DNA of 64,000 bases, taken from positions 9,000 to 72,999 of the IMG/VR virus record IMGVR_UViG_3300001531_000060; one strand, written 5' to 3'. This document shows positions 7,690 to 60,856 of this stretch, in pieces (position 1 is the first letter of the stretch; every line of letters begins with the position of its first letter). The notes beneath the pieces are model-generated. The model was not told the origin of the DNA. It worked only from the letters and a program-made list of their open reading frames with translations, and did no database searches. The position numbers were made by a program, and so were the translations under genes. The DNA is from a virus. Its lineage: Duplodnaviria > Caudoviricetes.

Positions 7690-7711
7690 ATTATGAGTGT
7701 TTTGTCAAGGG
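7690..7711 (-). promoter_or_regulatory. Putative late promoter, CCC-TTGACA-N7-CATAAT
   Basis: Reverse complement CCCTTGACAAAACACTCATAAT, upstream of the tail block; one of 7 copies. Confidence 0.7.
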
Positions 7712-7732
7712 TAATAAAATTGAAAAAAGTAC

Positions 7733-7761
7733 TTGACATTATTTTTATTTTATATTATAAT
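7733..7761 (+). promoter_or_regulatory. Canonical sigma70 promoter
   Basis: Perfect TTGACA-N17-TATAAT. Confidence 0.85.
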
Positions 7762-8070
7762 AGTGGCCGTAGGATAAATCTGCTAGTAGTGTCTACGACT
7801 ATAATATCAGGAATGGTAAAGCTCCTGCTCACTACTACAGCGTTGGGAAATGGGAAGTATAACAACGTACAAATGTATATACGTAATGTATATAGTATGC
7901 AACTCCCTTTGTATAATTGAGGGGAGCCCTAATACTGAAGGTTATTCATTAGCTTAATTTACCTAGAGACAGAAGAAGCTAACTACAGTTAATATAGGAC
8001 AATAGTAATTAGAGTGTTAACATAATTCCACTTTAATTTCTTTTTTCTTTTCTAAGAAAAAAGAAAGCTG
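7762..8070 (+). ncRNA. Possible structured non-coding RNA or origin region
   Basis: No convincing ORF; GC-richer than flanks; stems TAGTAGTG/CACTACTA, CAGGA/TCCTG, CGTTG/CAACG, CTCCCTT/AGGGGAG; lies between two perfect sigma70 promoters. Confidence 0.35.
8037..8066. repeat. Perfect 13-bp inverted repeat
   Basis: TTTCTTTTTTCTT-TTCT-AAGAAAAAAGAAA. Confidence 0.8.
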
Positions 8071-8132
8071 TGGGAAATAAAAAAATATTTGTTTACTTCT
8101 TATAGTCTTTTATTTAAAATAGTATTTACCTA

Positions 8133-8161
8133 TTGACATTTCAAATTAAATTTACTATAAT
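8133..8161 (+). promoter_or_regulatory. Canonical sigma70 promoter
   Basis: Perfect TTGACA-N17-TATAAT upstream of the replication block. Confidence 0.85.
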
Positions 8162-8198
8162 CTTAAGAAATTCAAAAAATAATGGAGGAAGTTTAAAA

Positions 8199-8462: not shown

Positions 8463-8471
8463 ATCAGACAG

Positions 8472-8506
8472 AGAGAGTATGGATTAGTAAATAGTTCATA
8501 CTCTCT
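8472..8506. other. Intergenic hairpin (10-bp stem)
   Basis: AGAGAGTATG-N15-CATACTCTCT just before an AGGAG RBS. Confidence 0.55.
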
Positions 8507-8521
8507 TATTAGGAGTACTCT

Positions 8522-9304: not shown

Positions 9305-9313
9305 TTATATATC

Positions 9314-10226: not shown

Positions 10227-10240
10227 CAAAGGTAATTTAT

Positions 10241-11080: not shown

Positions 11081-11104
11081 ATTAAAAAATAAAGGTAATT
11101 AAAA

Positions 11105-11362: not shown

Positions 11363-11372
11363 GGAAACTAAA

Positions 11373-12676: not shown

Positions 12677-12677
12677 C

Positions 12678-14003
12678 ATGGATTTAAATTTAGAATTCAC
12701 AAGTCATATATTTAAAAATAAAGAAGATCTTTTATCTATACTTAGTAAACCTTTTGATTTTAATTGTATAGATTTCGTAACTCCAGGATTTTCAGCATCA
12801 AGATCAGCTTGTTATTGTATTATAAATTTTTATAAAACATATAATGAATTATTAACATTATCTCAAGCAGAAACATTTGTAACAAATATTTGTTCAAATC
12901 CAGAACAGATTGTACCTATATTACAATATTTAAAACAAGCAAATGATTATGTACCTACTACAAACTTTACATTTTTATTAGATACAATTAGAAAAGAATA
13001 TAGTTTGTATATAATAAAGAATTCTTTATTAGATGTAACAAACTCTCTAGACTCAGCAGATTTAGACTCTATAGTTTCTAAGATGCAGAAAGGTTTAAAT
13101 AAAGTTAATTCTCTCGAGAATACTGAAGTTGTTGAAGGAGATTTAGCATTAAGTTTAGACGAGTTTTACGATAAGTATAAAAAAGTACAACAAGGTGAAA
13201 TGTCTGTTGGGTTACAAACAGGATTTCCTACATTTGATAAATCTACAGGTGGATTGAAAGCAGGTGAACTTGATATTGTTATTGCAGGTTCTAATGAAGG
13301 TAAATCAGTTTTCTTAATTAATGTGGCAAAACATTTATATTTACAAGGAAAGAATATTTTATATTTTTCAATTGAGTTACCTAAAGATCAAATTATTCGT
13401 AGATTTATTTCCTTAGCAGCAAATATAAATATTGATAGATTTAGAGATGGAATACTAACTCCGGATGAGAATACACGATTTATAAATACGATGCAAGAAT
13501 TTAAACAGAGAGAAAATATATTTTATATTGTAGACAATCCTACTTGTAATGCTGATACAATTGCAGCTAAGTATGAAGAAATTTCAGCGAAACATAAAAT
13601 AGATTTAATTCTAATAGATTATTTAGGTATTATGCGTCCTAAAAAATCAACAGGGCAGAAATGGGAAGAGCTTGGTAATATCGCTTTAGATGTAAGACAT
13701 TTAGCAAGAACATTTAAAATACCTGTACTTACTGCTATGCAGGTTAAATCAGAAGCAGTAAAGAATTCAAAGAATCCGGTTTATAATATGACAGATATTG
13801 CCAATTCATTTATGGTTATACATCATGCTGATACAGTATTAGCTTTAAAACTCAAAGATCCAGTCTCTGCAATGCAAGGACTTTCTATCGTAGAGATGAC
13901 TGCTTCAACTCCGAAAGTTAGAGATGGACAGAAATGTCAGTTTGATATAACGGCGATGTTTGCAAATATGTGTATGAAGGAGCCTGTAAATGCAACTTTC
14001 TAG
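12678..14003 (+). CDS. dnaB: DnaB-like replicative helicase
   Basis: TGFPTFD...GGLKAGEL, Walker A AGSNEGKS, ILIDYLG, AMQ, ADTVLAL. Confidence 0.92.
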   Translation: MDLNLEFTSHIFKNKEDLLSILSKPFDFNCIDFVTPGFSASRSACYCIINFYKTYNELLTLSQAETFVTNICSNPEQIVPILQYLKQANDYVPTTNFTFLLDTIRKEYSLYIIKNSLLDVTNSLDSADLDSIVSKMQKGLNKVNSLENTEVVEGDLALSLDEFYDKYKKVQQGEMSVGLQTGFPTFDKSTGGLKAGELDIVIAGSNEGKSVFLINVAKHLYLQGKNILYFSIELPKDQIIRRFISLAANINIDRFRDGILTPDENTRFINTMQEFKQRENIFYIVDNPTCNADTIAAKYEEISAKHKIDLILIDYLGIMRPKKSTGQKWEELGNIALDVRHLARTFKIPVLTAMQVKSEAVKNSKNPVYNMTDIANSFMVIHHADTVLALKLKDPVSAMQGLSIVEMTASTPKVRDGQKCQFDITAMFANMCMKEPVNATF

Positions 14004-14505
14004 TTTACCACAATTAGATATTGTTTCAATTTTTAAACATTATAACTTTGACTTAAAAGAGTCTGGTGATAGATATGTTTGCTTATGTCCGTTTCATAAT
14101 GATCGTAATACGCCGAACCTTACAATATATCCGAAAACAAATTCCTTCTATTGTTTTACTTGTAAGAAGTCCGGTGATGCTTTAACACTTATTTCTTTTA
14201 TGGAAAATAAACCGATTCATGTAATTAAACAAGAATTAGGTACAACATTTTTAAAATATAAATTGACTTCTCAGTATAAGAAACCAGTAGATTTTTTTCA
14301 AAGTTTATTGAAGGATAGTTCCGAACTATTTTATAATTATATTAGAGCATATCCAAATAATATACAACATTATACGTGGTGTATGCAACAGTTTGATATG
14401 TATTTAGAAGAACTTATAACTAATAAGATTGAAATTGATTTTACAAAGTATACACAAATACTTGACAATTTAAAAAAGATATTATATAATTTAGAAATTA
14501 AATAA
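13990..14505 (+). CDS. Stand-alone CHC2 zinc-finger domain of DnaG primase
   Basis: CLCPFHND.TP...FYCFTC.KSGD; no TOPRIM domain in this ORF. Confidence 0.85.
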   Translation: MQLSSLPQLDIVSIFKHYNFDLKESGDRYVCLCPFHNDRNTPNLTIYPKTNSFYCFTCKKSGDALTLISFMENKPIHVIKQELGTTFLKYKLTSQYKKPVDFFQSLLKDSSELFYNYIRAYPNNIQHYTWCMQQFDMYLEELITNKIEIDFTKYTQILDNLKKILYNLEIK

Positions 14506-14521: not shown

Positions 14522-14722
14522 ATGAAACAAGTAACAGTAACAAAAGGTTATTCTCAAACGATCTCGCAAGATTATAATTCGTACAAGTTCAGCGTATCAT
14601 TAACAGAAACGTTTGAAGTAGCAAATGGTGAGGAGTTAAATCAGAAGTCTGCAGAGTTATTTCAAAAATGTATTAATATGGTAAATGCAGACATAGCAAA
14701 TGTATTCGGAGGTAGAAAATAA
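14522..14722 (+). CDS. Hypothetical protein
   Basis: ORF with AGGAG RBS. Confidence 0.55.
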   Translation: MKQVTVTKGYSQTISQDYNSYKFSVSLTETFEVANGEELNQKSAELFQKCINMVNADIANVFGGRK

Positions 14723-20761: not shown

Positions 20762-23224
20762 ATGAAACAATGTAACATTTGTGGTTTTAATTGTAAGAAT
20801 AATGTAGGTAGTTATATTGGAAGTAATGCAAAGGTATTATTTTTATTTGAAACACCTACATATCAAGCTGATCTAGAGAATAGAATTACAGCCGGTCCTG
20901 TAATGGAATTATTTAAACAATATTTAACGAAGCATAAAATATCATTTGATGATATAGCAATAACTTATATGTCACATTGCTTTTCCGGTACACCAACAAA
21001 AGACCAGGCATTTAAATTAACAAACAATCCTGTAAAGAAAAAATATTATGAGAATTGTAGACATCATCTAAATAAAATTTTAGAAGATGTTAAACCTAAA
21101 TTAGTTGTTTGTGTTGGAGATAGACCTACAAAGTATTTTCTTGGCGACACAAAAGCAAAGTTATTTGATGTTTATGGAGCAATAATAAAAAGTCCATTAT
21201 ATAAAATAGATACATTTTGTATGTTGGATATGTATAAATTGTATTTGAAAACTCAGTATCGTTGTTACGGAGACAAATCATTTGAGTTTATTAAGAATTT
21301 TATTGATGGTATAAAAGTACCTATGCAACAGACAAATTGTACTGTTACTGTAGATATTAAGTTATTACATGAAGCATTATCAAAGCTTTTAACATCAACA
21401 AAGACCGCTATAGATATTGAAACAAGTGGATTAAATTTTTTAAAAGATAAAATTATGGGTATAGGTTTTGCTCTTGACAAAGAGAATTCTTATTATATAC
21501 CCTTACATAAATATGAGAATGATAAGATAGTTTCTTTCTGGGATGAACAAACTGAGAATTTAATTAAAGAAGATTTAAAAAAGTTTGTATCAAATGAAAC
21601 ATTAAAGATTGCTTATAATGGTCAATTTGATTTTAAATTTATAAGACACTATTTAAATGTCGATAGAATTAATAATGCAAGTTTTGATGTAATGTTAGCT
21701 TCGCATTTATTAAATGAAAATTTAAATGGTATGCGTTCCTTAAAGTTATTATCTGTTTTATTTACGGATATGGGTGGATACGAATCCGTATTATATAATT
21801 GGTTACGAGAACATAAGATAGTTAAAGATGATATGTATAAAGCTCCAGTAGATATTCTTGGAACGTATTGTTGTTTAGATACGATAGCAACATATAGATT
21901 ATATAGTAAGTTTGATATACAACTTGAGAGAGAAGGTTTATTAGATGTATTTAAAAAATTAACCATGCCATTACAGAAAGTATTAATGGATGTTGAGTAT
22001 GATGGTGTACAAGTTGATATAAATCATTTAGCAGAAATTGAAAAGAATAATAAGAAAGCACTTGAAGATAAGTTAGCTGTTATTCGTGGAAAGGTTGGAG
22101 ATCCGGAATTTAATGTTAATTCAACTCAGCAGCTTGCAGATTTGATGTTTAAGAAATTAGGATGTAAAGTTTTAAGAACAACAGACTCTGGTAATCCTGC
22201 TACAGATAAAGCAACAATTTCTAAGTATGCAAAGAAACATTCTGTACTACAAGATATACTTGATTATAAAAAGATTAGAACAGAAACATCTACATTTATA
22301 ACAGGTATGAAAGCTTTGTTAGATGATAACAACAAAGTGCATACGAATTATTTATTACATGGTACAGATTCTGGAAGATTGTCCTCAACAAATCCTAACT
22401 TACAAAATATTCCTAGAGAGAAAACTATAAAGAATCTTTATATACCAGAACCTGGAAAGGTTATGATACAGTGCGATTTATCTCAAGGAGAGTTTAACGC
22501 TTGGGCTTCATATGCACAAGATGCAAAGATGTTAAATGATATTAAGAACGGATTAGATATTCATAGAACAGTTGCATCTAAAGTGTGGAATATGAAACCA
22601 GAAGACGTAACAAAAGAACTTCGTACATTTGCAAAGAGAGTTGTGTTTGGATTGATGTATGGTATATCTATAGAAGGTGCAGCCAAATTGGTAGGGTGTT
22701 CAGAATCCGAAGCACAAAGAATTCAAACTACGTTTTTTGGTATGTATCCAAAAGCAGCTGCTTGGTTAAAAAATATTCCGGTAGTAGCAAGAGCAAACGG
22801 TTATTTACAAACTGTATTCGGGAGAAAGAGAAGATTATCCCATCTATTTAATCATCCATTACAAAGCATAAGAAATTATGCAAATAGAGTTTCTTCTAAT
22901 TTTCCTATGCAGTCGACAGTTGCAGATATTACAGCAAGGAATATGATTAATTTAAAACCATATTTAGATTCTGTAGGAGCACAAATTATATTAACTGTGC
23001 ATGATTCAATAATAGTTCAATGTGATAAAGCAATTGCAAAACAAGTATCAGAAGAAATGATGAAGATTGTTACACAACCGGTTCCAAATTATCATGGAAT
23101 TATTAGATGTGATATTGAAATTGGTGAAGCTTGGGGACATTTAGATAAAGTAGAATTTGACGAGGATACAGATAAGATTTTAAATGAGGATATTTTTTCA
23201 GAATTTGAACAAGAAAATACTTGA
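20762..23224 (+). CDS. polA: Family A DNA polymerase with N-terminal UDG-like domain and 3'-5' exonuclease
   Basis: Cys-rich UDG-like N-terminus; exonuclease DIET; GRLSSTNPNLQNIP; motif A DLSQGE; motif B KRVVFGLMYG; motif C VHDS. Confidence 0.93.
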   Translation: MKQCNICGFNCKNNVGSYIGSNAKVLFLFETPTYQADLENRITAGPVMELFKQYLTKHKISFDDIAITYMSHCFSGTPTKDQAFKLTNNPVKKKYYENCRHHLNKILEDVKPKLVVCVGDRPTKYFLGDTKAKLFDVYGAIIKSPLYKIDTFCMLDMYKLYLKTQYRCYGDKSFEFIKNFIDGIKVPMQQTNCTVTVDIKLLHEALSKLLTSTKTAIDIETSGLNFLKDKIMGIGFALDKENSYYIPLHKYENDKIVSFWDEQTENLIKEDLKKFVSNETLKIAYNGQFDFKFIRHYLNVDRINNASFDVMLASHLLNENLNGMRSLKLLSVLFTDMGGYESVLYNWLREHKIVKDDMYKAPVDILGTYCCLDTIATYRLYSKFDIQLEREGLLDVFKKLTMPLQKVLMDVEYDGVQVDINHLAEIEKNNKKALEDKLAVIRGKVGDPEFNVNSTQQLADLMFKKLGCKVLRTTDSGNPATDKATISKYAKKHSVLQDILDYKKIRTETSTFITGMKALLDDNNKVHTNYLLHGTDSGRLSSTNPNLQNIPREKTIKNLYIPEPGKVMIQCDLSQGEFNAWASYAQDAKMLNDIKNGLDIHRTVASKVWNMKPEDVTKELRTFAKRVVFGLMYGISIEGAAKLVGCSESEAQRIQTTFFGMYPKAAAWLKNIPVVARANGYLQTVFGRKRRLSHLFNHPLQSIRNYANRVSSNFPMQSTVADITARNMINLKPYLDSVGAQIILTVHDSIIVQCDKAIAKQVSEEMMKIVTQPVPNYHGIIRCDIEIGEAWGHLDKVEFDEDTDKILNEDIFSEFEQENT

Positions 23225-23249
23225 CAAAATTTTAAAAATTATGTATAAT
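23221..23249 (+). promoter_or_regulatory. Canonical sigma70 promoter
   Basis: Perfect TTGACA-N17-TATAAT upstream of the groES-like gene. Confidence 0.85.
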
Positions 23250-23274: not shown

Positions 23275-25204
<1,930 letters not shown>

Positions 25205-25205
<1 letters not shown>

Positions 25206-25894
25206 TGGTATACGGATTGAATTACTTACACCAACGCAATATAGATGATCAACAGATATCTGATTTTGGATTAGCATATCTGTATAATAATCAACTATAT
25301 GGTGTAAGTAATTCACCTACATTTGAAAAACTTTGTCAGTTTATACATAAGTTATTTGAAGAAAAAATAGATTTAAATATATATGATAATTGTATACTTA
25401 TACCTATTTTTGATTTATATAATAATATAATTTCATTTGCAGCTAGACACTTATCACCAAATGTAAAACAAAAATTTATTGGTGTAAAAGGATTTAAAAA
25501 ATCTTTATTATTGTTTGGCTTGAATTTAGCTTATGACGCAATACTTGAAATGGATGAAGTTATTTTAGTTGAAGGATATTGGGAAGTAATTGCGTTACAT
25601 AAAGTAGGGATTCGAAACGTTGTAGCTTTATGTGGATGTTCCATTAAAGATGTACAAGTTTCTTATTTAATGAGATTTACAAAAAATTTTAAAATATTAT
25701 TAGATCCAGATAAAGCAGGAATGGAAGGTAGTGAAAGAGTCGCTAAAACTATAAATAGTTTTGGTGGTAACGTAGAAATTTTACAGTTACAATCAAATGT
25801 CGATATTGATGAATTTTTAGCAAAAAATAATAAAGAGGAGTTTATACAAAAATGTGGACTATCGCAGAAGTATTTAAAAGAATCCCTCAAGTAA
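25205..25894 (+). CDS. DnaG primase catalytic core (TOPRIM), no Zn finger
   Basis: IPI.D..N.I..F.AR, LFGLN, LVEGYWE, LDPDKAG. Confidence 0.85.
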
Positions 25895-26412
25895 CTGTTT
25901 CAGATTATCGTTGGTATATTATAAATTTTTACTCGTTTGTAAAATTAAATCAGATAAGTAATGTACTTAAGTCTTATGACAATGACAATTTTTTATGGGT
26001 ACCTACTCATTTAGAAAAGAAGCGTTTACAAGAACGAAGTAATCAAATTATAACGGTTGATAAACCAAATTATTTTACATATGGATTTATTGCGATTAGA
26101 CCACAAAGTACAAATATAAAAGAGATTGCAAGTAGAATTAATTTTATTTATGGTGCACAAATACTTAAAGGTATGGTGTTTGATGATGAAGTTAAGCAAG
26201 CATTAGAGGTTGCTTATAAATATAATGCAAAGAAAAAGGAAGTAAGTTTTCAACCCGGTACAACTGTCCGTATTAATTCCGGTGCCTTTTATGGATTAAA
26301 TGCTAAGGTTGTAGAAGTTAATGGCACTAAAGTATCTCTAGAAGTTGATATGTGGCAGAATACAATCCAAATAGTCACAAGTATATTAGATATTCAAAGC
26401 TTGGATGAATAA
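25852..26412 (+). CDS. NusG-family (NGN+KOW) antitermination factor
   Basis: RWYII, WVPT, PNYFTYGFI (NGN); FQPGTTVRINSGAFYGLNAKVVEV..VSLEVDMW (KOW). Confidence 0.85.
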   Translation: MWTIAEVFKRIPQVTVSDYRWYIINFYSFVKLNQISNVLKSYDNDNFLWVPTHLEKKRLQERSNQIITVDKPNYFTYGFIAIRPQSTNIKEIASRINFIYGAQILKGMVFDDEVKQALEVAYKYNAKKKEVSFQPGTTVRINSGAFYGLNAKVVEVNGTKVSLEVDMWQNTIQIVTSILDIQSLDE

Positions 26413-26914
26413 GGAGAGAACTATGTTTTCTGAGTTTAAACAAGCTGTTGAGAATATCTCTACAAGTACAGATATACTAGAAGTAATGTTTTTATTTTAC
26501 TTCGATAAGAAAACTTTTATGTGGTATAAACATTTAATAGATAATAGGACTTCTCAGAAAAATCAAACTCAGTTAGGTATATTGTATGATATGGAGCAAA
26601 GTTTTATATGCAGAGAGCTACAGAAGGTTCAATCAAAGATAAAGAAATATATGTCAGATTTAGATAGAAACAGACCTTTATTAATAAATGTATTGAATTA
26701 TATAGATAAAAATACAAATGAACATCAGAAGTTAGTACTTTCTTATATATTACAAAGAAAGTCTTATAGTAAGATTGCAAAGATACTTGGTGTAAGTAGA
26801 CAAGCAGTACACTGTTGTGTATCTGGTTTTTACCATAGAGTTGCCAAACAAACTGATCAAGAGTCAATTTTATTCAAAAATCAATATAAAAAATTATTTG
26901 GTATTGAATTTTAA
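26405..26914 (+). CDS. Tandem sigma-region-4-like HTH protein; candidate late transcription factor
   Basis: QTQLGILYDMEQSFICRELQK and SYSKIAKILGVSRQAVH. Confidence 0.55.
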   Translation: MNKERTMFSEFKQAVENISTSTDILEVMFLFYFDKKTFMWYKHLIDNRTSQKNQTQLGILYDMEQSFICRELQKVQSKIKKYMSDLDRNRPLLINVLNYIDKNTNEHQKLVLSYILQRKSYSKIAKILGVSRQAVHCCVSGFYHRVAKQTDQESILFKNQYKKLFGIEF

Positions 26915-26916: not shown

Positions 26917-26938
26917 CCCTTGACAAAACTATCATAAT
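26917..26938 (+). promoter_or_regulatory. Putative late promoter
   Basis: CCCTTGACA-AAACTAT-CATAAT. Confidence 0.7.
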
Positions 26939-32675: not shown

Positions 32676-32696
32676 CCTTGACATTTTTATCATAAT
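32676..32696 (+). promoter_or_regulatory. Putative late promoter
   Basis: CCTTGACA-TTTTTAT-CATAAT. Confidence 0.7.
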
Positions 32697-39461: not shown

Positions 39462-39561
39462 ATCATTATCAGGTAGCATTAACCTAGCTAGTTAATGAGA
39501 TAATAGTATACCTTGAAATACTAAGCTGATAATGATATAATATCTTTCAAGGAGATAATTA
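39462..39561 (+). ncRNA. Endonuclease-leader structured RNA, copy 3 (divergent)
   Basis: P1 ATCATTATCAG/CTGATAATGAT; P2 CATTAAC-CTAGCTA-GTTAATG; AGATAA; P3 TAGTAT-ACCTTGAA-ATACTA; loop CCTTGAA pairs with TTCAAGG overlapping the SD. Confidence 0.7.
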
Positions 39562-41266: not shown

Positions 41267-41288
41267 CCCTTGACAAAAGTATCATATT
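41267..41288 (+). promoter_or_regulatory. Putative late promoter
   Basis: CCCTTGACA-AAAGTAT-CATATT. Confidence 0.7.
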
Positions 41289-43915: not shown

Positions 43916-44896
43916 ATGGGTACAATAGATAATATATCATTATGGGGCGATACAGCATTAGCAAGAAAAGCTTCAGTTAATGCATCTGCTACACCTGTAT
44001 CAATGGAAGCAAAAGAACAAAAATTTAACATGTACTGGAATGCACCAGGCGGATATCAAAGAATAGCTTTCGCATTGTCTGGTCCGTTGAAAACAAGATT
44101 GGATTACGTTGGTGTTGGAAGAAAACTTTTGATGGTTGATACCATACCTACCGGAGATATTCCTGTATACGATATGGATATGCCAGAATTTGGTGCTGTT
44201 AAAATAGCTGCTAGAGGTCAAGCTCCAGTATTTGAACAAGGCATCAAGAGAATTGGAATTCCTACATTTGAAGTAACAGTAAATGAAGTTATTAAGAAAC
44301 AAGAATTAGCTGTAAGAAAATATCCTGTATTCGACAGAGCAAAAGAAAGAGCTGCAATAGCTATGGCTATAGCTGAAGATGACATGATATTTGATTTGGT
44401 TAAATCAGCAGCAGTTAAGAATCCTAACCCAGCTACAATGGCTACATATGGTTCTGCTACAACATCAATAACAAAAGCAGATTTTGCTGAAATGTTCGGT
44501 GATATAACTGAAAGACAGTTGATTGCTAAAACATATTTGTTAGGTGCAAAAACATATGCAGATATATTGAAATGGAATTCTCAAGATTTGGATCCAGTAT
44601 CTTTGAACATCCAATTGGAAACAGGAAATTTTGGTTCTATATTTGGTGTTAGAGCTATTGCTTCTACAAGACTTGATAAAAACTATGGTTATGATACAAA
44701 CGGAAAGAATCAACAACCAGTATTTACATTGACAACTCCTGATAAACTCGGAAGATTGCCAGAAAGAAAAGCTGTTGAAGTTTCCATATTTGATAACATT
44801 CCTAAACTTCAGTATGATATAATTCCTTACGAAATAATCGGTATGGGTATTTATAACTGTGCTGGTGTATCTGGAAGAGTTAGAAGTTTGGCTTAA
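43916..44896 (+). CDS. Major capsid protein (HK97 fold)
   Basis: PLKTRLDYVGVGRKLLMVD.IP.G.IPVYD, PTFEV, A.A.AED..IF; strong RBS; followed by a terminator. Confidence 0.85.
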   Translation: MGTIDNISLWGDTALARKASVNASATPVSMEAKEQKFNMYWNAPGGYQRIAFALSGPLKTRLDYVGVGRKLLMVDTIPTGDIPVYDMDMPEFGAVKIAARGQAPVFEQGIKRIGIPTFEVTVNEVIKKQELAVRKYPVFDRAKERAAIAMAIAEDDMIFDLVKSAAVKNPNPATMATYGSATTSITKADFAEMFGDITERQLIAKTYLLGAKTYADILKWNSQDLDPVSLNIQLETGNFGSIFGVRAIASTRLDKNYGYDTNGKNQQPVFTLTTPDKLGRLPERKAVEVSIFDNIPKLQYDIIPYEIIGMGIYNCAGVSGRVRSLA

Positions 44897-44910
44897 TCAG
44901 TTTAGTATTA

Positions 44911-44944
44911 AAAAGCTACCGAGGAATCCTCGGTAGCTTTTTTT
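44911..44944 (+). terminator. Rho-independent terminator
   Basis: AAAAGCTACCGAGG-AAT-CCTCGGTAGCTTTT followed by a T-tract. Confidence 0.92.
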
Positions 44945-44950: not shown

Positions 44951-44972
44951 CCCTTGACATTTATATCATATT
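44951..44972 (+). promoter_or_regulatory. Putative late promoter
   Basis: CCCTTGACA-TTTATAT-CATATT, immediately after the capsid terminator. Confidence 0.72.
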
Positions 44973-45022: not shown

Positions 45023-45430
45023 ATGAATAATGAAAAAGACGTTAAAGATACAGGAATAGTATCACAAGAATCAATTAATAGAGCAATTGAAGACACAACG
45101 CAGTCCGAATATTATCAACAAAATAGAATTCCTTTACTAACAGGTGAATATAGAAAGGAAGCATTTCTTAAATTAAAAGGATTATTTTTAAAAGAGTTAT
45201 ATAAAGCAGTAGATGAAGAAGAAAAAGCTTGTAGAAAGGCTGATTTAGAGCCACAAATGAAAGGTGATAAGCTTAAATATATAGAAGACATGGTTGAGAC
45301 ATTTGACAATATGTTTCAACTAGAAGCACTAGCACAGTATTTATATCAAGAAAATATTATACCGACATTAGACGAAGTTAATACAAGAGCAAATAAACTA
45401 AACGAAAATCTCGGTAAACTTGAACTTTAA
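45023..45430 (+). CDS. Hypothetical protein
   Basis: GAGG RBS. Confidence 0.55.
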   Translation: MNNEKDVKDTGIVSQESINRAIEDTTQSEYYQQNRIPLLTGEYRKEAFLKLKGLFLKELYKAVDEEEKACRKADLEPQMKGDKLKYIEDMVETFDNMFQLEALAQYLYQENIIPTLDEVNTRANKLNENLGKLEL

Positions 45431-45925: not shown

Positions 45926-46576
45926 ATGACTAAATTAAATTTAGAAGTAGGACAAAAGTTTGGAAGGTGGACAGTTTTAGAAATTTCAAAGAAAATAAAA
46001 GGTCATGGCAATATTTTAGTAAGATGTAAATGTGATTGTGGTACAATAAAAGAAATTAGTCACTACACATTATTAAACGGTAAATCTGTTAGTTGCGGTT
46101 GTTTACGAAAAGAATTGTTAAGTAATAGAGAAAACGCTCACCATAAAACAAATACAAAGCTTTATCAAATTCATGCAGCAATGAAAGCTCGTTGTTTTAG
46201 TAAAAATCATAAAAATTATAAACAATATGGTGGTCGTGGGATAACAGTTTGTGATGAATGGAAAAATGACTTCGTGGCTTTCTATAATTGGGCAATGAGC
46301 AATGGTTATAAGGAAGGTCTTACAATAGACAGAATAGATGTGAATGGTAATTACGAGCCAAATAATTGTAGATGGGTTACTAGAAAAGAGCAGGCAAATA
46401 ATACTAGAAAAAATTGTTTTATTGAATATAATAATGAAAGACATACTATTGCTGAATGGTGTGATATTTTAGGTATAACATACAGCAAACTATTTAGCAG
46501 ACTACGTAAAGGTCTTCCTCTAGATAAATGTTTTTACCCTGGTAAAATATCAAATAATGGAATAGATTTACTATGA
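45926..46576 (+). mobile_element. Free-standing HNH endonuclease
   Basis: GQKFGRWTV, CKCDCG, SCGC, YGGRGITVC, TIDRIDVNGNYEPNNCRW. Confidence 0.9.
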
Positions 46577-47037
46577 TATATTTAGCACCTTCGTTCACTC
46601 TCGATGAGCTATTAACTACTTCACATAAGGATTTACTTCCTAAACAAAATGAGGAAGTGAAGCCTTATGTGAATAACTTATATATACTTGCCAATTATAT
46701 ACTTCAACCAATCCGTAATTACTATAAAGTACCTATAACAGTTACAAGTGGATTCAGAGGAAAAGCATTAAATGAAAGAGTTGGTGGAAATAAAACCAGT
46801 CAACATTGTTTAGGTGAAGCAGTAGACTTTATAGTTAAAGGCAAGACAGTTGATGAAGTATTTGAAGATATTAGAACAGGTAAGATTGATATTTGTTATA
46901 AACAGCTGATTAAGGAAAAAATATCTGGAAAGTTTTGGATTCATATAGGGATGGTCAAGATACCCTTTAAACCTAAAGATAAGTATTTGCAGAAGTTAAC
47001 TACAACTGATGGTAAAAAATATACAGAAGTAAAATAG
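46573..47037 (+). CDS. Peptidase M15A-family endolysin
   Basis: LQPIR, ITVTSGFR, VGG..TSQH..GEAVDF, WIHIG. Confidence 0.88.
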   Translation: MIYLAPSFTLDELLTTSHKDLLPKQNEEVKPYVNNLYILANYILQPIRNYYKVPITVTSGFRGKALNERVGGNKTSQHCLGEAVDFIVKGKTVDEVFEDIRTGKIDICYKQLIKEKISGKFWIHIGMVKIPFKPKDKYLQKLTTTDGKKYTEVK

Positions 47038-50159: not shown

Positions 50160-51188
50160 ATGAATAATTATATAGTTTATAAACATACTTTTCCTAATGG
50201 TAAAATTTATATAGGTATAACCTGTCGTAAACCTAAACTTCGTTGGAAAAATGGTAATGGTTATTCTAGTAATATTTATATGCAAAATGCTATTAATAAA
50301 TATGGCTGGAATAATATAAAGCATGAGATTTTAAAAACAGGTTTAACATTAAATGAAGCTTGTAAATTAGAGCGTCAGTTTATTAATGATTTTAAAAGTA
50401 ATGAACGTGAGTTTGGATACAATATAGAGTCTGGTGGTACTCAAGGTAAAGAAATATCTGATGAAACGCGTTTAAAATTAAGCAACGCTATTAAGAAAAT
50501 TAGATATAAATATAGTAAAAAAGTATATCAGTATGATCTTCAAGGAAATTTTATAAAAACTTGGTACTGTATTGCTGATGCAGTAAGTGCTTTAAATTTA
50601 AAAGAAAAAGCACGTGATGCAATAACAGAATGTTGTAAAGGTAGTTCATCTAAATGTCTAAGGTTGACAGCTTATAATTATATTTGGTTATATGATAATA
50701 ATATAGAAGAGCGTTTAAAGCAAATATCTAATATAAAAACAGCAAAATATAATAGCCATATTGTACCTATAATTCAATATACATTAGACGGAAAATTTTT
50801 ACATAAATTTGATAATGGTTCAGATGCAGCTAGATATATAAGCACCAAATTAAATAAAGATTATATTAATGTACATAGAAATATTCACGCTACTTGTGAT
50901 GGTAGACAGAAATCCGCTTTCGGTTATATTTGGTTAAAGGATACAGATGATATTCAAGAACGTTTGAAAGAAATACAATCTAGTAGATATAATAAAATGA
51001 TTGGTATTCGTAGTAAACGTATTCAACAATATACCTTAACAGGTGATTTTATTACAGAATATAATTCTTTAACGGATGCTTGTAAAGCTTTAAAATTAGA
51101 TATGAATTGTCGACCAACTATTTCACAATGCGGTAATGGTATTAAAAAATCTGCTTATGGTTATAAATGGAAGTATATTAACGAATAA
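50160..51188 (+). mobile_element. GIY-YIG endonuclease with three NUMOD1-like repeats
   Basis: YIVYKH..NGKIYIGIT..R, GYNIESGG; three [VI]xQY[DT]LxG repeats. Confidence 0.88.
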
Positions 51189-51189: not shown

Positions 51190-51211
51190 CCCTTGACATA
51201 ACTATCATAAT
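51190..51211 (+). promoter_or_regulatory. Putative late promoter
   Basis: CCCTTGACA-TAACTAT-CATAAT. Confidence 0.7.
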
Positions 51212-51240: not shown

Positions 51241-51747
51241 ATGTTTAAAATTTCTACATTCAAAATACAATCAAAAAGAGTTGAACTTCCTAAAGGGAAT
51301 CTTAACTTAGATTCTCTTATAGTTTCATTTAATGAGATGTATCGCGATTATGTTATTTATTATCCAGGCTCAATAGATAAATATATAACAAATATAGGAG
51401 ATATTGAATTAGGCTTCGGACCAAGATATCTTCTGCATAAACTTTTAAGAGAAGTTAGAAAGGCAAATCCAGATGGTACTGTTGATAATGGTTCTGTTGT
51501 TGTAAAAACTATTCCACAGTTACCAGAACCTTTAGTTAGAAGACTTGGTAGTTTAAATAGAGAAGCTTGTGGTGAAGATTTTCCCACAAGCAATAAATCT
51601 ATTCCAGGTAGTTTTGGTGAACCAGAACACATGTTTATAGATACAGATGTAGAAGATAAAGCAGAAAGACATACACAAGAAACAAATGATCCAGACGGAA
51701 AAACAATAAAAGTTGTGATAAAAGATCCAAATAAACTTTTTGAATAG
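51241..51747 (+). CDS. Hypothetical protein
   Basis: AGGAG RBS. Confidence 0.55.
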   Translation: MFKISTFKIQSKRVELPKGNLNLDSLIVSFNEMYRDYVIYYPGSIDKYITNIGDIELGFGPRYLLHKLLREVRKANPDGTVDNGSVVVKTIPQLPEPLVRRLGSLNREACGEDFPTSNKSIPGSFGEPEHMFIDTDVEDKAERHTQETNDPDGKTIKVVIKDPNKLFE

Positions 51748-56000: not shown

Positions 56001-56864
56001 ACTATGGATAATTCTTTTGAAACAAAATTTAGAACAATCTTTAATAAGTTGAAGAACTTAAGTAGTGTTTCTATAAATAAAAATATTGTCGCTTTAATGA
56101 AAGTATTAAACGATACACAATATAATTTTAAAAGTATATCTAGAGATATAGAAAGCTTATCTAAGAAACTTTATGAAACAAAGAAAGATAAAAGTAATGC
56201 AGATGGTGAAGTTTTAAAACAAAGTATGGCTAGTTTAGAAAAGACATTAAATGAAATCAATGATTTAGCTACAGAATCTGTTGAGAATTTAAGACCTAAT
56301 GTAGAACAAAAAATTCAAGATTGGTTGACCGCTAATAAAAATATCGCACCTTATGTAACTATTAAGTTTATTTCTGATAGACATAGACGTGGTTTATTTA
56401 GTAAAGAGTTTGATATACTCCCTATAGATATTACTGTTGATACCGTTGCTATACAGAATAAAATAAAATCTTCAGGATCATCTGTACAGAAAGAAATATC
56501 AGATTTAGATAGAAAGTTACAAAAGATGAGATTTTTACTTTCACAATATTTATATAATGCAATGGTTGATTCTAGTACGAGTCCAGAAACTTTATCTGGA
56601 TTACAAGTATTGTTAGAAAGAAATAATAATTTGTTAAGCAGTTTAACCGATAAAATACAGAATAGTTTTAAAGGTGAGTTTATCACAATTCCTTATATAG
56701 CAGAGAAATTATCATCTTTAAAGACAGATTTAATAAATTACGTAGCAGATATGTGTGAAAAAACGAATAAGTGCTTTGATTTGACAATGAATTTTAGTGA
56801 ACAATTAACTAATTTGTGGCAAAAAGTTGAAGATATATCTGCAGAATATGACCTTAAAATCTAA
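53028..56864 (+). CDS. Large orphan protein (1278 aa), possible internal/ejection protein
   Basis: Long ORF with helical character; no recognisable motif; late cluster. Confidence 0.55.
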   Translation: MRYNNMADNFSDIKVSQLDAFLQKFPKLDALLKDNEGISFSSFEIILPIILDNFNEIKTNIETFANANRKNAFGQIVLWLKDNGYIVDNKFVNKDISVADLTNFAAFYCNTLFKNNLISTQAGSLKDATSGATELAPNFFNKQFDIEGLTNDNGEQVSLSLHDGISKLRSQQILYSDTTDKVLRDLVVDRFNIGDSKKIGVDPSGKSVFFGSYVNTQITNNWNKLIHKENIIKKLLSVPELQDEAWVNKDVDSISFYEHLKECVKNNVGNLKDDAEIKNIVDNFDPRSVLFLTQKLEDTATKNYVPDNRYKDTKIFVGLIDDVKKHISKIGFIIKKLELKEPGSMSEKIYDSREDTFTIPKPTTSADTDAFKQLLVSDINTDEDSIKQRIDAIDDQTLYSIDHNLANPYTESYLVKWFTTLFTKKVLAEQYGFTAVEKGNELVFRYSGEEKTDASDSLSAYLSKLRGIIKKYKDYLAVLKYIVKSITSGKYNFDTSELATIHASTTQLYLRGYATTFGEKLGDLAEYSKSKDLNDVNFKSIVDSNELQKFVLDAASLAANTLLPINDDLEEIASMEYKKFKMDQPLDKEEFNAIYKEKQQEAELFIQSIKSYVNEKLNNLQTTPTESVEDLDLYLGKYSNFINALTLKREAAHKFDESDLVDFFKELYGQQYDSTTRTLSATKQSLLSEVYNIENVAESIIEFLNLKNVKDINKVQIGAYINQLVELNKYATYRNILTQNIDLEFLQENLTSIIDAIYNKLNAQNTQLSYNDILKEILAFNKDLNTNENLDDSNLSKFIKDNNISTLSSENISASEDAEALISFVANILFKTYRKTLEDSKSVSLINYIDNQKFNLLVDICDALSANKTAFTDRITSAIQLIKNKEYLLNAENKFDRLSEQFLYRGEPIRVIQSISNYKVLSNARAILFNIVNSDAILASLMQDCTDWDFSDKLVNEVLKSSKIFNISGKLVDGNINDLRGNVALPLDQKYTMDNSFETKFRTIFNKLKNLSSVSINKNIVALMKVLNDTQYNFKSISRDIESLSKKLYETKKDKSNADGEVLKQSMASLEKTLNEINDLATESVENLRPNVEQKIQDWLTANKNIAPYVTIKFISDRHRRGLFSKEFDILPIDITVDTVAIQNKIKSSGSSVQKEISDLDRKLQKMRFLLSQYLYNAMVDSSTSPETLSGLQVLLERNNNLLSSLTDKIQNSFKGEFITIPYIAEKLSSLKTDLINYVADMCEKTNKCFDLTMNFSEQLTNLWQKVEDISAEYDLKI

Positions 56865-56879
56865 TAATATGGAGCATAT

Positions 56880-59291
56880 ATGTATAATAATTTCTTAAAA
56901 ACTTTACAAGCAGCTGATAAATTTACTTTAGAGAAAGCATTAAGACAAATTGTACAAGATTATAAGTTTAAGAATACAAATAGTGTACCAGTTAATCTTA
57001 TTGCTTATAACAGAAATAAAGAAAATGAAAATATTTATCAACTATTTATAAGATACGTGCCAGGTTTAACATTATTGAATGTAGACACTTTTATCGGCGG
57101 TTCTAATATTCAAAATGATACAACTCCTTTAACTCATGTAGCAAATATTTTTGTTGATGATAGTGTAAAATCTGATGATACATTGATGTCAAAGCCTGGA
57201 TATGCATCTATCAGAGTTGATGTTACTCCACTAAACTCAAGTGTTTCTGATAAAGATGAATTTGATTTCTATACAGGTATGTTAGAAAACGTTATTCATA
57301 AATTAAATAGTGAAGTTCAAGCCAGTAATGCAAAATATGTAGTAGAGTATGTAAGACCATCTGATATTTCTGAGAGTATATACTTTGATGATAAGGGTAG
57401 GTTGTCATCAACAGAAAGTGATATATACGATATAAAAGGTAAATTACAATTAGTTGCTATTATAAGTCGTAATTATTATATAAATAAATTAAGAACTTCC
57501 GATGTGTTATTGAACTTAGGTAAGTTTACGGAAGTTACGTTTGATAGAAGTTTTGTTTCAAGAAAATATAATGAGATTATGGATTTATATTGGCGTAGCG
57601 AAGAGTTTAAGAATCTTGTATATAAACTTGCACATAGATTAAATGCTTTAGGAAAATTAGGTAAGGATGTTAAGTTACCTGTAAGTGAGATGGAAGATAT
57701 TAAAAATGATTCTACTTTAAATAGTTATATTGATGAATTGATTTTAGAATTTAAAAAAGCAGAATCTATTGTTTATGATACGTCTTCTGAACAATTAACT
57801 GAAAATTATATAAAACGTTTCTTTGAATTATATAATGAAAAAATTGAAGATAAGTTTAAACAAGAAATGCAAAGATCTGGTAGTATATATTCGAATTTTC
57901 TTTTTAGAGTTGCTTTGAAATTCGAAGATTATTTAAGTGATGCTGAGAAGTTAAATATGGAAAATTTAAAAAAACGTTTAGAAGATGAAAATAAATTTTC
58001 TGCTGAAGAGCTTCAATCACTTAATGAAGATGTTGATACAGATCCCGATACAATACAAAAGAAACAACAAGAAGAAGCTATAAGAGAAGAGCTTCCAGTA
58101 ATAGAAGAAGCACCTAAAGTTTCTGATGAAAGTAATGTTGCTAGATTATTGGTTGAAAATGATGAGTTGGTTTTATCAGAATTTGGTGCTTCCGGTTCTT
58201 ATACTCAAGACGCTAAAGATGATTTTCAAGAATTTTTATATGAACGTGGTTATGATCTTCAACAGAATAAAGATGGTAAATATATAGGAGTAGTTGATGA
58301 TAAAGGATCAGCAATAGATACAGCTGAAGTATTACGTGATTTTAAAGAGAATTTTACAAGTTTATCTAATGATGAGATTTTAAAAATAGAGGATTCAAAT
58401 GCTTCTGAGTCTACATCAGGTAAAGTTGTATTTGAAAATTATATGAAAGAGAGAGCGCATTATCCAAAGATATTTAATTTCTTTGGAGCAGCAGCTCAAA
58501 ATGATAAAGAGAATCTCCAATCACTATTAAAATTTATTCAAAGCGAATCAACAAAGTTGGATGATAAAAATACTTCCGCTAAAGAAGTTTTATCAACTAT
58601 TGTTCAAGAAGTTTATTCAACACCTCTTGACAAAGATTTATCTAAATCGTTATTATTAGCTTGTGCATATCCAACAAAAAACCCTACTAAGTGGATTGAA
58701 CACTTAGTTTCTATTGTAGTTTTAAGTATTCAGATTTTGGATATATTTATAGAATCAGACGATAATAAGAAGGCAATGAATAGTTTAAAAGCTTTGTTTA
58801 ATGAAAAACAGTCATTAGAATCTTACTTTTTAAAATCTAATTTACAAGCATTAGATACTTCTATATTAGATAGACAAAAGTTCGTAGAGAAAACCGATAT
58901 TAATTTATTGTCTACAATAAGATTGTTTTTAAATACACTAAAAGATAAAGAATATAATTATGATATTATAGAGAATAAACTTAAAACTATTTCTAAAGAC
59001 GGAAAAGAATTAGATAAAAATTCTATAAATAGTTTAATTGATGAGTTTAATAAAGAGCAATCCAAGTCTTTAACATATGATCAATTATTTAATACAAAGA
59101 TTCAGTTCTCTGAGCAATTATCTAGACCTTTAACAGATGTAGAGACTTCAAATAATCCGCAATTAAATAATGCTCGTATGGAGTATATAAATTCTATTAA
59201 TAGTGTTGGACTAAAAAATTTAGAAAATAAATTAAATAGTATAGAAGATCAAATAAATAAAATAGATTGGGAGGAAATAAATGTCAAATAA
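56880..59291 (+). CDS. Large orphan protein (803 aa)
   Basis: N-terminus MYNNFLKTLQA; late cluster. Confidence 0.55.
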   Translation: MYNNFLKTLQAADKFTLEKALRQIVQDYKFKNTNSVPVNLIAYNRNKENENIYQLFIRYVPGLTLLNVDTFIGGSNIQNDTTPLTHVANIFVDDSVKSDDTLMSKPGYASIRVDVTPLNSSVSDKDEFDFYTGMLENVIHKLNSEVQASNAKYVVEYVRPSDISESIYFDDKGRLSSTESDIYDIKGKLQLVAIISRNYYINKLRTSDVLLNLGKFTEVTFDRSFVSRKYNEIMDLYWRSEEFKNLVYKLAHRLNALGKLGKDVKLPVSEMEDIKNDSTLNSYIDELILEFKKAESIVYDTSSEQLTENYIKRFFELYNEKIEDKFKQEMQRSGSIYSNFLFRVALKFEDYLSDAEKLNMENLKKRLEDENKFSAEELQSLNEDVDTDPDTIQKKQQEEAIREELPVIEEAPKVSDESNVARLLVENDELVLSEFGASGSYTQDAKDDFQEFLYERGYDLQQNKDGKYIGVVDDKGSAIDTAEVLRDFKENFTSLSNDEILKIEDSNASESTSGKVVFENYMKERAHYPKIFNFFGAAAQNDKENLQSLLKFIQSESTKLDDKNTSAKEVLSTIVQEVYSTPLDKDLSKSLLLACAYPTKNPTKWIEHLVSIVVLSIQILDIFIESDDNKKAMNSLKALFNEKQSLESYFLKSNLQALDTSILDRQKFVEKTDINLLSTIRLFLNTLKDKEYNYDIIENKLKTISKDGKELDKNSINSLIDEFNKEQSKSLTYDQLFNTKIQFSEQLSRPLTDVETSNNPQLNNARMEYINSINSVGLKNLENKLNSIEDQINKIDWEEINVK

Positions 59292-60435
59292 ATATATGAA
59301 AGAGATTCCTATTTTTGACATAAAAGCAGGAACGGAATTCACACATGATTTATATGGCGTTGGAAAAGTTGTAGCATCTTATCCAATGGAAGGTGTTGTA
59401 GATCTTGAATTTAAAGATGGTCATATAGAATATGGCTTCGACATTAAATCACAAACAAAACCTACTGAGGTTCTTAAAATCGAAGCTTTTAAATGTCCTA
59501 TCACAGGTGAAGATGTATTAGCTGAAAGATGCGCATGTATAAAAGATGGTATTCATTCATGTGATTACTTTAAAGCTGATTTAGAAAAGAAAGAAAGTTC
59601 TTGTATTTATGACTCTGAGATGCAAAGAATTGCTGCAGAAGCTGATGAAAAAGTAAAAAGAGAAGCGAAAGTTTCTAAAGATAAATTAGATGCAGTTAAT
59701 CAAATTAAAAAGCTTCTTAATAAATTATTAAAAGAAGCTAAGTTTGAAGATGTATTAGGTCCTGCACCGGAAGGAATAAATGCTAAAAATACATACTTAT
59801 ATGTACAGCATAGAGTAACTGGAGCAAAAGGCAAAGTTGAAAAGTCTGTATCCGATAATGCTGTAGTAGTAAATTGGAAAAATCAAGAAGAAGGACAATG
59901 TCTTTGTCAGACAGTTGTTACAGGTGATGAACTTGCTCCAGATAATGAAGCTAAAATTTGGTGCAAGATAAAAGAAATTCAAGAGAAATTAAAAAAGAAA
60001 TTTGTTAAACCTATTAGTGATTTCTTTAAAAAGAAAGCTTCAACAGAATCTAACTTAATAAAGATAGATGCAGATAAAATATTAAATAAATTAACTGCAA
60101 TGTCAGATGTTAAGAAACAAAGTTATTTGCAGGAAATGAGATCACAATTGAATTCAATAGGAATTGACGTTGAAGCTAGTTCAGTTGTATTAGATTCAAA
60201 TGGATTTGCTCAATCATTTAGTATAATAAAAGCAAATAATCATGATATTTGTCCTGAATATATTACAAATGTGAGCAGAAAGAAAGTTGCACAGAAACTT
60301 GGATATGATGGTGATGTATTAAAAATTTATGCTTCTTTAAAAGGTCAGTTAAATACACAATATTCAGAAGATGGATTTGAAAATTTTATAGAAAAAGATT
60401 TATCTAAAGATGAGGAATTAAATACTTTGTTTTAA
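59281..60435 (+). CDS. Hypothetical multi-module head protein
   Basis: Short modules separated by [KR]xA motifs; Cys cluster. Confidence 0.5.
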   Translation: MSNKYMKEIPIFDIKAGTEFTHDLYGVGKVVASYPMEGVVDLEFKDGHIEYGFDIKSQTKPTEVLKIEAFKCPITGEDVLAERCACIKDGIHSCDYFKADLEKKESSCIYDSEMQRIAAEADEKVKREAKVSKDKLDAVNQIKKLLNKLLKEAKFEDVLGPAPEGINAKNTYLYVQHRVTGAKGKVEKSVSDNAVVVNWKNQEEGQCLCQTVVTGDELAPDNEAKIWCKIKEIQEKLKKKFVKPISDFFKKKASTESNLIKIDADKILNKLTAMSDVKKQSYLQEMRSQLNSIGIDVEASSVVLDSNGFAQSFSIIKANNHDICPEYITNVSRKKVAQKLGYDGDVLKIYASLKGQLNTQYSEDGFENFIEKDLSKDEELNTLF

Positions 60436-60445
60436 GGTAGGCCAA

Positions 60446-60841
60446 ATGCGTAAACCTAAAGAGAAAGTCTTAGATATAAGAATACATTTTGTTCCGGATT
60501 TGGTAGAAAAGCAGAGTGCATATGGTTTGTATTATAGATTGCGCAAAAGCAAGAATGTAACAGATATCTATATAGATACAAACCATGCAAATCAGCTTGA
60601 TGTAATTAATACATTTTATCATGAATTTACACATTTCATAGTAGATGTAGTTTTACAAGAAGATAATTACAGTAAATTTTTTCATGACGTCGATCAAAAT
60701 AAAAAAGTAAATGTAACTTTAGGTGAAGTTGAGAGCTTAGATGAACAAACTAGCGATGATATAAACGAAGAAAAGCTGTGCACTCAGATAGCAAATAAGT
60801 GCACAGCTATTGTTAAAAAGAAGTTGAATATCGTCCCTTGA
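60446..60841 (+). CDS. HExxH metallopeptidase-like protein
   Basis: TFYHEFTHF with downstream NEEKLC. Confidence 0.55.
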   Translation: MRKPKEKVLDIRIHFVPDLVEKQSAYGLYYRLRKSKNVTDIYIDTNHANQLDVINTFYHEFTHFIVDVVLQEDNYSKFFHDVDQNKKVNVTLGEVESLDEQTSDDINEEKLCTQIANKCTAIVKKKLNIVP

Positions 60842-60856
60842 CATTTTTATCATAAT
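60835..60856 (+). promoter_or_regulatory. Putative late promoter
   Basis: CCCTTGACA-TTTTTAT-CATAAT. Confidence 0.7.

Follow-up and report, generated by a model that had tools for sequence, protein, structure and literature searches.

The window and its late motif

The window analysed here is a 64-kb stretch of the 73-kb IMG/VR virus record IMGVR_UViG_3300001531_000060 (Duplodnaviria; Caudoviricetes), which we label G000 and whose completeness CheckV estimates at 45%. The DNA composition is 26-32% GC. A rightward early/replication arm spans ~7.7-26.9 kb and is followed by a rightward late arm that runs to the window end (Table 1). Repeated along this DNA is a 21-base signal, CCTTGACA-N7-CATAWT, called the late motif below, which very probably identifies the late promoters in a clade of uncultured phages. 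Its candidate reader is a protein of 163 amino acids (aa) with two tandem helix-turn-helix (HTH) domains, referred to as the regulator.

TTGACA-N7-CATAWT has seven exact matches in the window where 0.07 are expected, and none of 100 shuffles reached seven. In all seven, CC precedes TTGACA, which extends the signal to 21 bases. The 73-kb record holds an eighth exact copy outside the window and no copies with one or two mismatches. From 21 distinct sites, collected from this phage and from relatives with a regulator 75-90% identical, we derived the consensus c-CC-TTGACA-WWWN-TAT-CATAWT. TTGACA and CC are found in 21/21 of these sites, and the three bases of TAT in 19, 20 and 21 of 21; both CC and TAT lay outside the search pattern with which the sites had been collected. 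About 17 positions are invariant or nearly so. The two hexamers are separated by exactly 7 bp in 8/8 copies and 21/21 sites, and not by the 16-18 bp of a sigma-70 promoter.

All copies lie in intergenic gaps or over the last codons of the upstream gene, and all are co-oriented with the downstream gene. The genes downstream of the window copies include those for the terminase, portal, protease, major head protein and endolysin as well as the tail-fibre operon. A previous interpretation made from the letters of this stretch (the sequence-only reading) had described seven copies at or just past gene ends and pointing with the next gene. Count and placement were reproduced, and some of its start coordinates were one base early, which is immaterial. 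It had also noticed a copy right after the capsid terminator, and copy 5 indeed follows a strong hairpin with a T-run. Its proposal that the motif serves only morphogenesis genes holds inside the window and fails outside it, as the eighth copy precedes a TnpB gene.

This eighth copy stands ~60 nt upstream of the TnpB gene (Pfam OrfB_IS605, Cas12f-like TNB and HTH_OrfB). In G001 and G002, the two relatives with a 90% identical regulator, a homologous TnpB gene is found at a different genome position, inside the replication module, and is preceded by the same motif with the same spacer. At the TnpB loci of G000 and of G001/G002, a canonical TTGACA-N17-TATAAT promoter lies back to back with the late motif on the other strand. 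Because the same motif precedes homologous TnpB genes at different positions, it behaves as a portable expression signal, and the TnpB transposon seems to be wired into the phage late programme.

The early promoters are of another type. Four perfect TTGACA-N17-TATAAT sites were found, three of which (7733, 8133 and 23221) had been named in the sequence-only reading; the one at 14462 is added here. The window has no further 12/12 match, and all four fall within 5-25 kb, in the early/replication arm, while the region of 25-64 kb has none. At the divergence point 7690-7761, a leftward late motif and a rightward early promoter face away from each other with their TTGACA boxes 22 nt apart, and the same layout recurs in G001 (L028). 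At G000:C1:1176-1215, before the window, the plus strand has TATTGACAATCATA twice in tandem at a distance of 21 nt, with CATA 2 nt from a TTGACA box; this pair fits neither promoter class.

Table 1 Features of the window and of the adjoining part of the record. Positions refer to the window unless a G or L label is given; "core" denotes the match to TTGACA-N7-CATAWT
Feature	Position	Strand	Remarks
Late motif copy 1 (CCTTGACA-N7-CATAAT)	7690..7710	-	Core 7690-7708; faces leftward operon 7612 to 2; 22 nt from early promoter 7733, back to back
Late motif copy 2	26918..26938	+	Core at 26920; 4 nt past stop of tandem-HTH gene; putative first late promoter; upstream of 26978-27820
Late motif copy 3	32676..32696	+	Core at 32678; after intein terminase and 82-aa gene; upstream of 32732-34267 and portal; same site in L031
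Late motif copy 4	41268..41288	+	Core at 41270; after homing endonuclease; upstream of block ending in major head protein; homologous site in L042
Late motif copy 5	44952..44972	+	Core at 44954; directly 3' of capsid terminator; upstream of 45023-45430 and endolysin region; homologous site in L042
Late motif copy 6	51191..51211	+	Core at 51193; upstream of 51241-51747; ribosome site 15 nt past motif
Late motif copy 7	60836..60856	+	Core at 60838; overlaps last codons of 60446-60841; upstream of 60885-62066
Late motif, eighth copy	G000 6201-6221	-	~2.8 kb before window
TnpB gene with late motif	G000:C1:4993-6221 (L001:293-1521)		~2.8-4 kb before window; also L009:1911-3150
Perfect TTGACA-N17-TATAAT early promoter	7733..7761	+	
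Perfect TTGACA-N17-TATAAT early promoter	8133-8161		
Perfect TTGACA-N17-TATAAT early promoter	14462-14490		Precedes 14522-14722; within 3' end of 13990-14505 (primase zinc-ribbon protein)
Perfect TTGACA-N17-TATAAT early promoter	23221-23249		
Tandem-HTH protein, 163 aa (two sigma-region-4/LuxR-type domains)	26423..26914	+	N domain ~10-83, C domain ~83-157
NusG/UpxY-like paralog with KOW domain	25852..26412	+	Adjoins tandem-HTH gene
Intrinsic terminator (hairpin and T-run) after major head protein gene	44910..44943	+	-24.1 kcal/mol, z -7.6
Leftward operon	7612 to 2	-	Includes tail-fibre-like protein 2469-4145
DnaB-type helicase and primase parts			Early arm
Family A DNA polymerase with uracil-DNA glycosylase domain	20762-23224		Early arm
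GroEL	23604-25205		Early arm
Toprim primase	25205-25894		Early arm
Large terminase with intein	29551-32424	+	Late arm
Portal protein	36304-38040		Late arm
Protease	38685-39449		Late arm
Major head protein	43916-44896		Late arm
Endolysin	46573-47037		Late arm
Free-standing homing endonuclease genes (n = 4)	28599-29549, 39562-41217, 45926-46576, 50160-51188		Late arm; DUF7487/HNH/GIY-YIG types

For the late motif, the sequence-only reading had seen no consistent -10 element 17 nt after TTGACA, and our scan agrees: the best TATAAT matches 16-18 nt past TTGACA score 2-4/6, which is the background distribution of AT-rich DNA. In the aligned sites, no position downstream of the motif is conserved as a second -10, and at 51193 there is too little room for one. 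Ribosome sites begin 15-38 nt past the motif in the plus-strand copies (15 nt at 51193) and leave no room for another -10, so that CATAWT itself is the probable -10 element. With CATAWT at -12 to -7, CC-TTGACA would occupy -27 to -20 and TAT -15 to -13. A T and then A/T are kept 6 and 7 nt downstream of CATAWT, which would be positions -1 and +1. A transcription start ~7 nt past CATAWT suits the distances of the ribosome sites.

Conservation in relatives

No close cultured relatives were found when 24 kb were compared by megablast with 50,697 phage records; the sole match was a 34-nt homing-endonuclease stretch. The portal protein is 29% identical to the portal of Bacillus phage G. A tblastn search with the 163-aa regulator as query gave nothing meaningful. 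Relatives were found in assemblies, on contigs of 158-166 kb.

The motif occurs in 9 and 11 exact copies, respectively, in the two phages whose regulator shares 90% identity, and in a 75% relative, of which 20 kb are available, both orthologous sites are kept. A phage identified through its capsid (L042, 71% identical) has three TTGACA-N7-CATAAT sites at homologous places, namely before the scaffold/capsid block, directly after the capsid gene and before the tail block. A capsid relative of high GC content (L043; 64.5% GC, 41% identity) is without such a motif.

In more distant relatives, the site after the regulator gene could be compared. It reads TTGACA-N7-AATAAT at 52% regulator identity, TTTACA-N7-AATATT at 42%, TTGACA-N7-TATAAT at 38%, CAAACG-N7-AATAAT at 32% and CATATA-N7-AATAAT at 28%; the contigs of the 24-42% relatives measure 0.9-5 kb and offer one site each. 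The ATAAT core and its register are thus kept in all listed relatives, and the upstream box persists to 38% identity and differs below that. Ahead of the hexamer, the distant relatives read GT, with the G at -14, where this phage has TAT. Loss of the spacing in relatives had been put forward beforehand as an outcome that would speak against a separate promoter class. The 7 nt are kept in all relatives examined that still have a TTGACA-like box, down to 38% regulator identity and 71% capsid identity.

Two sites with two mismatches each were noticed in the 300-kb relative G002, CCTTGACA-N4-GTG-TAATAAA at G002:C1:8140-8160 and ACTTGACA-N4-AGT-AATAAT at 56859-56879. They resemble the GT-AATAAT form of the 28-52% relatives and could be late promoters in a weaker or older form.

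The comparative evidence supports a phage-specific promoter class which would be separate from the sigma-70-type early promoters. The idea of a separate late class dependent on a phage factor, as already put forward in the sequence-only reading, therefore survives in outline. Two of its parts were revised, namely the nature of the factor and the scope of the class, which has to include TnpB.

The tandem-HTH protein and its neighbour

The gene of the regulator and that of a NusG paralog are the last two genes of the early arm, and the pair precedes the first late site in every relative. The open reading frame of the regulator extends over 26405-26914, and its homologues begin at the second methionine, at 26423. 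This is probably the true start, from which the product has 163 aa. Only 10 clusters among 1.8 billion representatives make up this very small family, and profile scans of IMG/VR and of the JGI metagenomes for the regulator returned only the two 90% relatives.

An AlphaFold2 model built from 11 sequences reached a predicted local distance difference test score (pLDDT) of 92.9 and a predicted template modelling score of 0.84. In fold searches, the C domain (83-157) matched sigma region 4 with Z 6.5-7.3 and a root-mean-square deviation (rmsd) of 1.7-2.8 A over 56-72 residues. Among the matches were Fusobacterium sigma-H (Z 7.3, rmsd 2.5 A, 66 residues), Streptomyces coelicolor HrdB (Z 7.1) and SigF (Z 7.0). 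By sequence, the C domain matches the NCBIfam model for extracytoplasmic function sigma factors (E 7e-6) and Pfam Sigma70_r4 (E 0.0015), both below the cutoff, and LuxR/GerE chains (E 0.006-0.02). Residues 83-157 thus probably form an HTH of the sigma region 4 type. The proteins that resemble the regulator most in a protein-language comparison are viral Sigma70_r4 proteins of 188-203 aa, and the top whole-chain matches in Foldseek are sigma factors, which are weak (E 0.5-1).

The N domain (10-83), modelled alone with a pLDDT of 82.9, gave matches of Z 6-7.1, among them EsrB of the LuxR type (7.1) and region 4 of WhiG (6.8), SigW (6.7) and sigma-H (6.6). It also resembles LuxR/DeoR HTH domains. 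Among the matches listed for the N domain, the sigma segments are from region 4 and none from region 2, even in chains that hold both. The evidence leans against a region 2 in this domain, although a very divergent one is still conceivable.

As Z scores of 6-7 are modest for small helical domains, the fold assignment of both domains is likely but not certain. The regulator is best described as a tandem sigma-4/LuxR-type HTH protein, i.e., a two-HTH activator or a sigma-4 mimic. It is presumably not a complete sigma factor because both of its halves are predicted to be of the sigma-4/LuxR HTH type and no region 2 is seen.

The motif consists of two conserved blocks whose centres are 10-12 bp apart, with an A/T-rich 4-mer between them, and two HTH domains in one chain would fit this two-block signal. 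The recognition helix of the C domain starts with SRQ in the four phages with TTGACA, with SRY next to TTTACA, and with SKD or SVS if the box does not resemble TTGACA. The recognition helix of the N domain begins with an invariant Q59, and ATAAT is invariant too. This covariation is weak. It points to a reading of the upstream box by the C domain and of the -10-proximal block by the N domain, which would be a sigma-like polarity.

The neighbouring gene product (25852-26412) scores 26.1 bits with Pfam KOW (cutoff 22.3) and matches the PHROG annotated as transcription antiterminator (E 6.5e-7). Over its whole length, the NCBIfam models UpxY (E 3.7e-8), NusG (E 1.8e-6) and RfaH (E 1e-4) respond, all below their curated cutoffs. 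This paralog more likely acts after initiation, as a candidate for processivity or antitermination of the late transcripts, than as the reader of the motif. The sequence-only reading had pointed to the products of 26405-26914 and 25852-26412 as candidates. The former stays the candidate reader, without a recognisable region 2, and the latter is better regarded as a NusG/UpxY-like elongation factor.

Pfam searches of the early genes brought up no transcription protein besides these two. When G000 and G002, the latter 98% complete, were searched in six frames, RNA_pol_Rpb2_6, T7-type RNA_pol and Sigma70_r2 gave no match; taken alone, the search for a T7-type polymerase is uninformative because its control was silent in every control genome.

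Other genes of the window

Besides the genes of Table 1, the late arm codes for large unassigned proteins and several homing endonucleases. Three late motif copies (at 41268, at 51191 and, in relatives, others) stand directly 3' of homing endonuclease genes. The homing endonuclease gene at 39562 has a sigma-70-like site of its own with TG, TTGAAA-N17-TATAAT at 39513. The intein of the terminase was recognised by Intein_splicing (E 1.7e-17) together with a NUMOD3 motif; the terminase of the 75% relative has 572 aa and is without an intein match.

The sequence-only reading had listed groE genes among those with a perfect TTGACA-N17-TATAAT promoter. GroEL was confirmed, whereas the 109-aa open reading frame before it (23275-23604), taken for groES, has no Pfam match at E 0.01. 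In relatives, open reading frames of 111-120 aa occupy its place, likewise without Pfam hits on record. The nearest bacterial matches of GroEL are 41% identical and come from Lachnospiraceae, which may hint at the host. In a 28% relative (L035:6227-8776), the GroEL gene encodes 849 aa with a LAGLIDADG/Hom_end insertion, suggestive of a chaperonin intein. No tRNA genes were found in this DNA.

Favoured mechanism and alternatives

With a probability of roughly 50%, we favour a phage-specific late promoter at which the host polymerase melts CATAWT and the tandem-HTH protein supplies the upstream contact, comparable to the MotA-type sigma appropriation of T4. CATAWT would be the -10 element, melted by host RNA polymerase with region 2 of its primary sigma factor, with a C at -12 and no -35 element at a usable distance. 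CC-TTGACA and TAT would be read as double-stranded DNA by the regulator, which would give the anchoring that sigma region 4 normally takes from a -35 box 17 bp away. The late units would be switched on once the regulator accumulates because its gene is the last of the early/replication arm, and the NusG paralog next to it would keep polymerase going across the long late units. This scheme is favoured because CATAWT is close to the host consensus -10 (bar the C at -12) and the phage protein has no melting domain that we could recognise.

Several observations weigh against it. The box is a perfect host-type TTGACA, which could mean that region 4 of the host sigma and not the phage protein binds it. 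A protein that covers -27 to -13 would have to fit on the DNA together with sigma regions 2.4 and 3. Z scores of 6-7 can be reached by a common helical arrangement, though sigma region 4 dominates the hit lists. The two HTH halves align in register, yet an internal duplication is not significant (hhalign E 0.02, probability 2%). The 24-32% relatives have an upstream box other than TTGACA and one site each, so that the covariation is anecdotal. Finally, protein and motif are linked by gene position, co-occurrence and fold.

Tentatively, a new architecture can be imagined. A protein of only two sigma-4 domains would direct the host polymerase to a 21-bp signal whose -35-type box is nearer to the -10, by one helical turn, than is usable for any sigma-70 holoenzyme. 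It would either replace regions 3 and 4 of the host sigma or detach host region 4 from the beta flap and so let it bind beside region 2. Sigma appropriation would then have a new form, conserved in an uncultured clade of ~160-kb phages.

An alternative that we consider unlikely is a true replacement specificity subunit, in which the 163-aa protein sits on core polymerase and its two domains read both boxes. Melting would be done by the N domain or by an unrecognised phage partner, and a short linker would set the 7 nt. Split sigma factors are known from T4 (gp55/gp33) and Bacillus subtilis (SigO-RsoA). The suggested polarity, with the N domain at the -10-proximal half and the C domain at the TTGACA half, is sigma-like, and both the Foldseek matches and the viral Sigma70_r4 look-alikes point in this direction. 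Very divergent phage sigma factors have a precedent in phiEco32 gp36 (PMC12276001). However, the N domain aligns with region 4 and never with region 2 of sigma chains, the six frames of G000 and G002 gave no Sigma70_r2 signal, and Pfam offered no partner candidate among the early genes. A near-consensus host -10 would also be an odd coincidence if no host sigma took part.

Equally improbable, in our estimate, is that the host sigma reads both hexamers. Here a phage factor, possibly a sigma-4 mimic on the beta-flap tip, would free host region 4 for binding to a TTGACA just 7 bp from the -10, and the phage protein would read only CC and TAT or no DNA at all. TTGACA is the box of the phage's own early promoters and is invariant in 21/21 sites, and the phage protein has the fold that binds the flap tip. 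Sigma-70 region 4 off the flap is known to bind a -35-like element 1 bp from a -10-like element (lambda PR', with Q), and the arrangement resembles that of region 4 beside the pause-inducing -10-like element in lambda Q-engaged complexes. Against this stands that CC and TAT are as invariant as the hexamers, which calls for a reader other than the host sigma for these extra bases. In the distant relatives, the box drifts along with the recognition helices, which is a better fit to a phage-encoded reader than to the host sigma.

The motif could also be an operator or a pause or loading site in transcribed DNA, for instance for recruitment of the NusG paralog in the way ops serves RfaH, with the late units transcribed from elsewhere. 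A NusG paralog is encoded nearby, and -10-like and -35-like elements of this kind cause sigma-dependent pausing. We nevertheless infer initiation because the minus-strand copy at 7690 lies where the two arms diverge, out of reach of any upstream transcript, and because the eighth copy is the only recognisable signal upstream of its TnpB gene; the motif travels with TnpB genes in this role. One copy lies directly after a strong terminator, and the late arm holds no alternative 12/12 N17 promoter, which makes a signal in transcribed DNA rather improbable.

Ordinary host promoters with a weak -10 and a chance CATAWT are very unlikely: four of the seven window copies do have a 4/6 hexamer at 16 or 18 nt (TAGATT at two, TAAATT, TAAAAA), but such scores are background, TAT-CATAWT at a fixed 7 nt in 21 sites is beyond chance, and at 51193 the ribosome site would fall inside the start region.

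If the favoured scheme is right, regulator and motif would form a compact and specific promoter/activator pair, with ~17 fixed positions and no near-copies in 73 kb, which could possibly serve as an orthogonal expression switch in low-GC bacteria. The motif can also be used in annotation, where it delimits late transcription units in this uncultured phage clade.

Comparison with known systems

T4 MotA/AsiA: In T4 middle promoters, a host -10 is preceded at 12 +/- 1 bp by the MotA box, which is bound by a monomeric two-domain protein on a remodelled holoenzyme (PMC2988021). The late motif, as read from its sequence, is similar in that a host-type -10 is combined with a phage box which replaces the -35, lies closer than a -35 and would be bound by a two-domain phage protein, with the host polymerase kept in use. 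It differs in the box itself, which is CCTTGACA at 7 bp and not a TGCTT core at 12 bp, and in that the signal runs unbroken into the -10. The candidate reader has two HTH domains of the sigma-4 type and not the double-wing fold of MotA, and sequence variation is hardly tolerated, in contrast to that in MotA boxes. Pfam scans of the window's early genes named no MotA or AsiA homologues; no dedicated search was made.

Ltr late activators: RinA, ArpU and LtrA (Sigma70_r4 family) of Gram-positive phages are encoded just before the packaging/late genes and are needed to transcribe the late operon (PMC3753634). The regulator is likewise a small protein similar to sigma region 4 whose gene is directly upstream of the late/packaging region. 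Between its end and the first late motif are 4 nt, the terminase gene comes no more than 3 kb further on, and this order is the same in all relatives. Unlike the Ltr activators, which belong to temperate siphoviruses with one late promoter before terS, the regulator has two HTH domains and would serve 8-11 sites in a ~160-kb phage. An hhalign comparison of the family profile with LtrA of phage 37 (YP_240149) detected no sequence relationship (E 0.34, 17 columns).

Phage sigma factors: phiEco32 gp36 is a divergent sigma which redirects host core polymerase and has kept a region-2-like domain (PMC12276001). The present system shares with gp36, T4 gp55 and SPO1 gp28/gp34 a phage specificity factor, here a candidate, and a conserved middle or late promoter. 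These factors, however, have a region-2-like domain with clamp helices and -10 melting, and none is seen in the regulator. Their promoters are without host-type hexamers, which are kept in the late motif.

MarA/SoxS/Rob: In these activators, one polypeptide with two HTH motifs binds an asymmetric site of ~20 bp, made of two boxes in successive major grooves, near or overlapping the promoter. The candidate reader would be alike as a single chain with two HTH domains for a two-box site. Its domains are of the sigma-4/LuxR type and not of the AraC type, and its site would be at -27 to -13, whereas Mar boxes lie at or upstream of a normal -35.

Known routes by which phages take over the polymerase comprise MotA/AsiA, gp55/gp33, Q and gp36/gp79, and late promoters that depend on a phage factor are known as a kind. 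Full-text searches found no published description of a TTGACA-N7-CATAAT late promoter, which does not prove that none exists. The recognition geometry itself stands a fair chance of being new. If the favoured scheme is correct, the combination of a -35-type box 7 bp away from its -10 and a protein of two sigma-4 folds would stand beside these systems as a new promoter recognition geometry.

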